Shown: one piece after another, positions 61,590 through 61,935 of the stretch
How positions within the stretch are numbered: position 1 is the first letter of the stretch
Layout: every line of letters starts with the position of its first letter
Virus record (IMG/VR): IMGVR_UViG_3300031414_000007
Coordinates: 128,001 to 192,000 of that record
Direction: 5' to 3' (one strand)
Origin: a virus
Lineage: Duplodnaviria; Caudoviricetes
Length of the DNA: 64,000 bases
The notes under the pieces: model-generated
Databases searched by the model: none
What the model was told of the DNA's origin: nothing
The model's input: the letters and a program-made list of their open reading frames with translations, nothing else
Made by a program: the position numbers and the translations under genes

Positions 61590-61935
61590 CAACTCTTAAC
61601 CCGAAAGCTACTACAGCGCTAATGCTAGGAAGGCTAAGGCTACAGCAGGCTTGCTACAACGCTCATGGCATGCTTCAACAATAGTTCTACAGGTACATCT
61701 TTAGGCGGCACGTTTCAGAGACATAGAAAATAAAGAAACCATGTCCTCAGCAGCCCGAACTATAGTCCATACGCACTATAGGCAGCGATCTAGCGGAAAT
61801 CCCTAGGTCGTCTAAACCGTGTAAATTTTCCGTCAAAAACAGTCCGTTTTTTAACCAAACGCCCTTTTTGACTCTGAAAATGAGGAAAATCCGAGAAAAA
61901 TCAAGGACTTTCCCCTCTTTTGAAACGAAAAATCA
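61590..61935. other. Candidate replication origin / bent-DNA region
   Basis: About 390-bp ORF-free gap with clustered GCTA/CTACAG repeats and ten A/T tracts at ~10-bp spacing. Confidence 0.4.

Follow-up and report, generated by a model that had tools for sequence, protein, structure and literature searches.

We report on a gene-free gap of 392 bases (61546-61937) in the genome of an Alexandravirus-like jumbo phage, IMG/VR virus record IMGVR_UViG_3300031414_000007, which we tentatively read, with confidence slightly short of even, as a composite terminator, promoter and control region at the border of two transcription classes. The genome sequence analysed comprises 210,531 bp; "the window" is the whole 64,000-nt stretch corresponding to its bases 128001-192000, and positions are given in window coordinates. 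The gap separates the stop codon of a gene of 219 amino acids (aa) from the start of a 538-aa gene for a PolA-like protein. Since the surrounding genes all lie on the minus strand, this is the strand on which the gap has to be read. Computation establishes the class membership of the promoter motif, the covariation of a hairpin (H1) and its stability on the transcribed strand alone, a conserved curvature that is unique in the genome, the presence of conserved boxes (B3 and B4) and the polymerase fold of the neighbouring protein. According to our preferred reading, transcription of the upstream virion/lysis-class operon would end or be attenuated at H1 with its T run and at a second hairpin, H2, just past the stop codon. 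The PolA-like gene would be transcribed from its own single-box, replication-class promoter, and the bent AT-rich DNA with its hairpins, B3, B4 and an array of CTGTAGC repeats would form an architectural and protein-binding region tuning that one promoter, in which putative factors would bind the upstream control elements. An initial annotation, made from the letters alone, had proposed a replication origin (ori) or packaging (pac) site, possibly served by the adjacent PolA-like protein. The structural half of that interpretation stands (a bend, genome-unique and conserved, beside a PolA-like neighbour); as to the functional half, an ori or pac function is neither shown nor favoured.

The two transcription classes became visible when k-mers were counted in the 101 upstream regions of a rough gene call. 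CTGTAAA (class B) occurs in 15 of these regions against 1.0 expected, at distances of 15-104 nt before the starts (11 of the 15 within 29-52 nt), and CTAATTT (class A) in 13 regions against 0.45 expected, its intergenic copies lying mostly 30-55 nt before a start. The main DNA polymerase, an HNH gene and the clamp loader each have CTGTAAA upstream. CTAATTT is found before the endolysin, before genes close to the head-tail connector and before the operon that ends at 61938. Because the box classes differ on its two sides, the gap marks the point at which a virion/lysis-class operon gives way to a replication-class gene without a change of strand. The class B box of the gap, a match to AATCTGTAAATA, has its core CTGTAAA at 61576-61582 (minus strand), 37 nt before the GTG start and invariant in seven lineages; each of the 19 sequences compared keeps the box before the polymerase-like gene. 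A matrix trained on 15 other sites gives it 18.0, about 12th of the roughly 35 genome sites scoring at least 13. The site belongs to the class B motif class, and its activity as a promoter is predicted from this membership. A class A box is absent from the gap (best score 6.3 against at least 15.6 for real sites), and no sigma-70-like site was found in it on either strand. CTATAG was considered as a third promoter class and dismissed for want of enrichment in intergenic DNA. According to the accessible text of its description (PMC7412058), the relative PaBG encodes sigma-70-like factors. The literature searched on these phages holds no description of their promoters, their origins or this locus.

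Hairpin H1 (61882-61915, minus strand) lies 22 nt past the stop codon of the upstream gene. Its 11-bp stem pairs 61915-61905 with 61892-61882 and encloses a conserved loop of 12 nt (61904-61893); a T run (61881-61876) comes directly behind. The stem is AU-rich, the run ATTTTC begins 1 nt after it, and a terminator scan calls a different pairing here. A covariance model trained on nine sequences matches 14 of 20 loci, two of them outside the training set (E 3.5e-4 and 0.013), and it matches at this locus only, that is, nowhere else in the window and nowhere in the complete genome of one relative. In the alignment fitted to this model (12 distinct rows, one of which is an antisense hit) 97.7% of 132 cells are paired, and in six of the 11 pairs both partners have changed. 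Covariation scores 0.427, compared with 0.227 for shuffles, none of 500 reaching the observed score, and slid partners give at most 0.135. The stem is thus kept by compensatory changes, and it includes many G-U pairs, which are possible only on the minus strand. Hairpin H2 (61832-61872, minus strand) has an outer stem of 8 bp and an inner stem of 5 bp, the latter reading CGTTT/AAACG here and CATTT/AAATG in relatives. The initial annotation had seen no typical terminator in the region. This is correct insofar as the common terminators of the genome, GC-rich UUCG hairpins with T runs, are absent, but it overlooks the conserved hairpin and T run directly behind the stop codon; H1 is terminator-like, and termination may take place there. 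A second border (55346-55484) likewise carries a hairpin, with a long loop, and a T run directly before a CTGTAAA box.

In RNA folding the segment holding both hairpins reached z -2.59 for the minus strand, compared with -0.80 for the plus strand. Of 19 related sequences, 17 fold more stably on the minus strand; DNA energy parameters all but remove the strand bias (z -1.38 versus -0.93). For the whole gap the values are -2.34 (minus strand, one of 100 shuffles as good) and -0.67 (plus strand). Eight relatives, including some with unrelated gap sequences, show sense z values of -2.0 to -5.2, each time below their own antisense values (+0.56 to -2.55). Fourteen random coding segments have a mean z of -0.86 (standard deviation 1.42) and a minimum of -4.51, so that a z of -2.3 for the gap is in itself unexceptional and the RNA evidence moderate. 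The variable stretch between B3 and B4 forms a different small hairpin in each lineage.

The AT-rich part of the gap (61801-61937) has a GC content of 36%, compared to 49.5% for the genome, and its A/T tracts are helically phased. All ten tract starts listed in the initial annotation coincide with runs of A or T, eight of them with runs of at least four (61835, 61847, 61865, 61877, 61886, 61896, 61918 and 61928) and two with runs of three (61857 and 61909). The period of about 10 bp claimed there was confirmed by the AA/TT periodicity of 61826-61937, which peaks at 10.3 bp with a power of 4.51. No window among 10,521 tiled over the genome and no shuffle among 500 attains this power; outside the locus the best value is 1.74, and the six top-ranking genome windows all overlap the locus. 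The bend that had been proposed on these grounds is also predicted by a wedge-model path, in which the 120 bp from 61801 are the most curved of 5,261 genome windows, with an end-to-end/contour ratio of 0.537 (median 0.979, next best elsewhere 0.799). The curvature values are indicative. Phasing of 10.2-10.5 bp is kept in three gap types of differing sequence and in 14 of 19 related sequences, in each of which none of 100 shuffles was as good. At the same time the A/T tracts supply H1 and H2 with their arms, loops and T runs. The phasing is no general by-product of hairpins, and it is also kept in a Yersinia phage in which the H1 model finds nothing. As the DNA signal and the RNA signal are both real and overlap, one sequence appears to serve two codes at once. 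In GC content the segment belongs to the lowest 0.2% of windows, yet at least eight loci melt more easily. The intergenic stretches 40451-40560, 53888-54061 and 55680-55730 are more AT-rich and have a less stable duplex than the gap (GC 0.25-0.31 in windows of 60-112 bp); no helical phasing was detected in any of the three. As for an IHF site, the one match to the consensus WATCAANNNNTTR with one mismatch (61899-61911, in the H1 loop) is at chance level, with 48 matches in the window against 48.9 expected.

Between the bent segment and the promoter lie two boxes and a repeat array. B3 (23 nt, 61804-61826) and B4 (21 nt, 61695-61715), both on the minus strand, are invariant in six lineages in which the rest of the gap is only 60-84% identical, and each is unique in the genome, as is the H1 loop. 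They are conserved footprints, and the binding of proteins to them and to the repeats is putative. B4 is preceded by TCTGAAAC, which occurs a second time before the promoter core. The array of CTGTAGC/TAGC repeats (61604-61662, minus strand; GCTA and CTACAG on the plus strand) lies 24-80 nt upstream of the promoter core, and the CTGTAGC repeats have their first five bases in common with CTGTAAA. The positions given earlier for GCTA (61607, 61618, 61624, 61633, 61639 and 61653) and for CTACAG (61611, 61640 and 61687) are correct in all six and all three cases, respectively. Six GCTA within 51-60 bp form the densest cluster of both the window and the whole genome, the runner-up place having three. 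The repeated core is short (6-7 nt), the GCTA spacings are irregular (11, 6, 9, 6 and 14 bp), and the copies number four to seven, with number and spacing varying even among close relatives. The longest direct repeat in the gap is 19 nt, in two copies at 74% identity; there is none of 20 nt or more. Self-pairing of the repeats in RNA was rejected, since on either strand shuffles fold better than the repeat zone (z +1.46 and +1.80). B3 was also tried as a divergent promoter on the plus strand and discarded (class B matrix 2.0 against at least 13 for real sites).

B3 is furthermore complementary to the promoter region (61590-61576). Within the gap type of the window, eight sequences have a duplex energy that only 1-5 of 200 shuffles attain, and in other gap types the promoter region is complementary to a different upstream segment of different sequence. 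The best members of types i to v are matched by 1-5, 4, 14, 12 and 3 of 200 shuffles, respectively. Not significant was the duplex in SNU2 (157 of 200), JA29 (108), Yen902 (64), SNU20 (47), MG16 (41), SNU28 (40) and Alexandra (36). Judged from these sequences the complementarity looks like an unexplained regularity, weak or negative in several members. In T4 gene e and gene 49 a stem in read-through transcripts masks the ribosome site. A comparable masking by a long-range stem was rejected for this gap, as the unpaired probability of the initiation region is about equal in read-through and promoter-started RNA for 13 of 14 alleles, the exception being Alexandra (mean 0.19 versus 0.55). A duplex with the Shine-Dalgarno region was not significant either (9 to 200 of 200 shuffles as good).

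The segment 60500-63000 matches 41 phage records and is 86.8% identical to Dickeya phage vB_DsoM_AD1 and Erwinia Alexandravirus phages; the genomes of the related jumbo phages measure about 260 kb. A gap of 329-497 bp occurs at the same position in all 18 relatives inspected. These gaps fall into at least five sequence types, which go with the type of the polymerase-like gene and have been exchanged between close phages. The type found in the window, carried for example by Dickeya phage AD1 and Erwinia phage pEa_SNUABM_1, is represented by seven lineages that are 54-84% identical in the gap. The same-genus phage pEa_SNUABM_35 has an unrelated gap of 329 bp without H1, B3, B4, repeats or phasing, and its genome of 261,719 bp contains no comparable bent DNA (best periodicity 1.88 versus 4.51, best curvature ratio 0.823 versus 0.537). 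The bent element is therefore not needed by every Alexandravirus for replication or packaging. Searches for additional sequences gave little: a protein-based scan of metagenome contigs yielded no further relatives for the covariation analysis, a scan for an 18-nt B3 pattern returned ten loci that are all unrelated chance matches, and a genome-contig scan for relatives returned two distant proteins of no use here.

The product of the downstream gene (59929-61545, minus strand; GTG start at 61545, 538 aa, or 536 from the ATG at 61539) had been called PolA-like. It matches nothing in Pfam, including DNA_pol_A, even at E up to 10, and nothing in a PDB sequence search even at E 10; the name is nevertheless correct, because the fold matches family A polymerases. 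In a Foldseek search with an AlphaFold model (built on 16 homologues; predicted local distance difference test, pLDDT, 77.7) 101 PDB chains were found at E <= 0.001, of which the best 40 are all family A DNA polymerases (Klenow, Taq, Pol theta, apPol), with E 2.7e-6 for Klenow. The protein shares with these enzymes the predicted palm, fingers and thumb fold with its catalytic aspartates (D331 and D507) and invariant acidic and basic residues, and differs from them in the lack of a sequence match in Pfam or the PDB, in a motif C reading HDG and in the absence of a recognisable exonuclease domain. D331, K375, Y379 and H506-D507-G508 are invariant in 16 sequences, and D331, K375, Y379 and H506-D507 sit at what we take to be the expected family A motif places. 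The position after SQF is N, an asparagine presumably located where PolA enzymes carry the sugar-gate glutamate. Homologues are known only in 50 phage records, from Erwinia, Dickeya and Yersinia phages, and the main replicative polymerase is a separate gene (21738-24908). At least five very divergent alleles exist, with identities from 96% down to about 28%, while the DNA of the upstream gene is 80-94% identical in the same phages. The break in similarity falls exactly at the stop codon of the upstream gene. Such hypervariability is unusual for a polymerase-like gene and hints at a function in specificity or in an arms race.

The order of elements in the gap recalls T4-type operon borders, in which an intrinsic terminator is followed by a single-box promoter (T4 late box TATAAATA). 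Here, too, a hairpin and T run behind a stop are followed by a -10-like box, the phage box CTGTAAATA is one position off TATAAATA, and two boxes mark two gene classes. Unlike a T4-type border, the gap is three to four times longer than other borders in this genome and adds unique invariant boxes, repeats and extreme curvature. Several points weigh against reading it as a control region. A plain terminator-plus-promoter border in this genome needs about 100-140 bp, and about 250 bp of the gap are left without an assigned role. B3, B4, H1 and the GCTA cluster each occur only once in the genome, as expected of an origin or pac site, whereas general regulatory motifs recur. The extreme curvature is found 220-360 bp before the promoter, farther off than a classical upstream element would be, and H1 with its AU-rich stem and conserved 12-nt loop is unlike the usual GC-rich UUCG terminators, its loop suggesting recognition by something.

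A replication origin that is exchanged as a module together with its cognate PolA-like protein is an alternative we regard as unlikely. Bent DNA, B3/B4, repeats and promoter would then assemble or activate initiation, with the first primer supplied by the enzyme or by a transcript from the promoter. Several features fit such a role: phasing and predicted curvature that are the strongest in the genome and lie in AT-rich DNA, the uniqueness of all elements of the gap, a replication-class gene with a family A polymerase fold immediately downstream, and the replication-gene neighbourhood, 1.8 kb from a divergent strand switch and inside a broad GC-skew trough. Lambdoid phages exchange origin and initiator as modules. 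Gap type and polymerase allele change together here while the upstream gene stays 80-94% identical, which fits an exchangeable origin module, yet fits simple linkage equally well. No origin has been described for such phages, and we know of nothing on the replication or packaging start sites of giant phages relying on host RNA polymerase. The accessible text of a 2026 jumbo phage review (PMC13282480) mentions neither replication origins nor pac sites. The GC-skew check named in the initial annotation did not point to the gap: the cumulative minimum lies at 69276, about 7.4 kb away, the strand switch at 63716/63816, and the cumulative skew follows gene orientation with a broad trough at about 62000-72000. 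Further evidence against an origin comes from pEa_SNUABM_35, with its unrelated gap and no comparable bent DNA genome-wide, from the eight or more loci that are easier to melt, and from H1, whose G-U pairs work only on the transcribed strand and whose strand bias nearly vanishes with DNA parameters. With up to one mismatch to the DnaA box consensus TTATNCACA, none of the 50 matches in the window falls within 61546-61937. Iteron origins upstream of an initiator gene, such as those of pSC101 and lambda (ori), resemble the gap in its bent AT-rich DNA, direct repeats, repeat-related promoter, adjacent replication gene and modular exchange. They have, however, several regular direct repeats of about 17-22 bp, whereas the gap offers short, irregular repeats of variable number and no DnaA box; its neighbour is a polymerase-like protein and not a known initiator, and a phage of the same genus lacks the element. 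T4 oriF/oriG and the T7 primary origin combine a promoter with an adjacent AT-rich unwinding region, and the gap similarly joins a replication-class promoter and an AT-rich segment beside a PolA-superfamily gene. Its AT-rich segment is, in contrast, located upstream and not downstream of the promoter, the box adjoining this segment is no promoter (score 2.0), and other loci melt more easily. Bolder, and quite improbable in our view, is the idea that gap and gene together form an exchangeable replication-initiation cassette, in which bent DNA, boxes and half-promoter repeats would recruit the cognate miniature PolA-like enzyme; with its HDG motif C and the asparagine at the presumed sugar-gate position, this enzyme is perhaps the maker of the first primer.

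A pac site, at which the small terminase would bind repeats and boxes on bent DNA so that the first headful cut is made nearby, is hardly to be expected. The locus lies among replication-class genes, the scanned neighbours, replication-related or of unknown function, gave no terminase match, same-genus SNUABM_35 lacks the bent element, and strand-specific covarying hairpins and a promoter would be left unexplained. SPP1 pacL and P1 pac do share with the gap short repeated boxes beside intrinsically bent, genome-unique DNA; they differ from it in that the gap is neither in nor beside a terminase gene and carries strand-specific hairpins of RNA type. The short repeats flanking bent DNA that is unique in the genome would suit packaging, and PaBG is described as circularly permuted in the accessible text of PMC7412058. 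A functional structured RNA on read-through transcripts of the upstream operon (a long 3' untranslated region, a processed non-coding RNA, a processing site, or a partner or template of the polymerase-like enzyme) also strikes us as a rather doubtful proposition. The covariation of H1, the more stable folding of the minus strand in the gap and of the sense strand in all eight relatives, and the presence in every allele type of an upstream segment complementary to its own promoter region, with differing sequences, speak in its favour. But the structured part is situated upstream of the sole recognised promoter, most transcripts may be stopped at H1, a z of -2.3 is in itself unexceptional beside random coding segments, the promoter-complement test is not significant in seven phages, and the repeat zone is less structured than shuffles. 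Moreover, curvature is a property of DNA that an RNA function leaves unexplained, and 59000-64000 shows no match at E up to 1 to the Rfam 15 covariance models, group I/II introns and riboswitches among them. It is very unlikely, finally, that the gap has no function of its own and consists of decayed promoter and terminator copies or remnants of small genes at a recombination hot spot beside a hypervariable gene. Swapping of gap types between close phages, the small open reading frames (ORFs) annotated in this gap in fHe-Yen9-02, SNUABM_32 and SNUABM_3, and the partial promoter look-alikes (CTGTAGC, and TCTGAAAC twice) would fit such decay. Against it stand the blocks of 23 and 21 nt that are invariant where the gaps are otherwise 60-84% identical, the compensatory changes in H1, and a phasing of 10.2-10.5 bp kept across three allele types of differing sequence, which in 14 of 19 sequences none of 100 shuffles attains.

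Several features surround the elements described so far. The upstream gene (61938-62597, minus strand; function unknown, phrog_31583) is the last of a two-gene operon with a class A box (CTAATTT) at 63746. This box lies in the 99-bp divergent junction (63717-63815) between the minus- and plus-strand gene blocks, 1.8 kb from the gap. On the downstream side, seven lineages share the Shine-Dalgarno region TCAGGTAA (61553-61560, minus strand) unchanged. The GTG start at 61545 is overlapped by a two-codon upstream frame, ATG ATG TGA (61550-61542), the core of which, GATGTG, is likewise invariant in seven lineages; this frame may be a start-stop element or serve translational coupling. A hidden small gene in the gap was rejected, as no ORF exceeds 34 aa and SNUABM_33 has a 1-nt insertion inside the sole candidate. 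So was an intron between two exons, given the lack of an Rfam intron match and a downstream gene with its own conserved Shine-Dalgarno region and start. The gap contains no tRNA that could be found and has no paralogue in the genome. The rough gene call gave 24 gaps of at least 150 bp, several of which are probably artefacts; a "gap" of 419 bp at 64365-64783 (genome 192365-192783, past the window end) reads like a missed ATG-started gene. As several other called gaps are probably missed genes, 61546-61937 is among the very largest true non-coding stretches. Outside the window, at 4513-4870 of the genome (G000:C1), about 340 nt with no obvious ORF follow a good class B box (matrix 19.4); they may represent a gene for a non-coding RNA or a further control region. 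Two RNA-library runs from one study, labelled marine, contain the same two 151-nt contigs (61660-61810 and 61858-62008, 100% identical), which resemble one read pair present in both runs; carry-over is possible. Two other RNA-library runs contain contigs of a relative of about 90% identity that cover the polymerase-like gene up to 61603. These contigs come without strand or ends and with possible DNA carry-over, and they speak neither for nor against transcription.

Read as a control region, the gap would be a clean test case for a two-box transcription programme, with a class border on a single strand. It would also be a rare sequence obeying two codes, with helically phased A/T tracts at the DNA level and hairpins kept by compensation at the RNA level, and its two unique footprints of 21-23 nt call for a binding protein. 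If it were an origin module, replication initiation in jumbo phages would become directly testable, and the cassette, if true, would give sigma-dependent jumbo phages their first proposed origin, with different origin/polymerase specificity types within one genus. The locus holds the single most bent DNA of its genome, is among its most idiosyncratic non-coding sequences, and is tied to a fast-evolving, uncharacterised polymerase-like gene.

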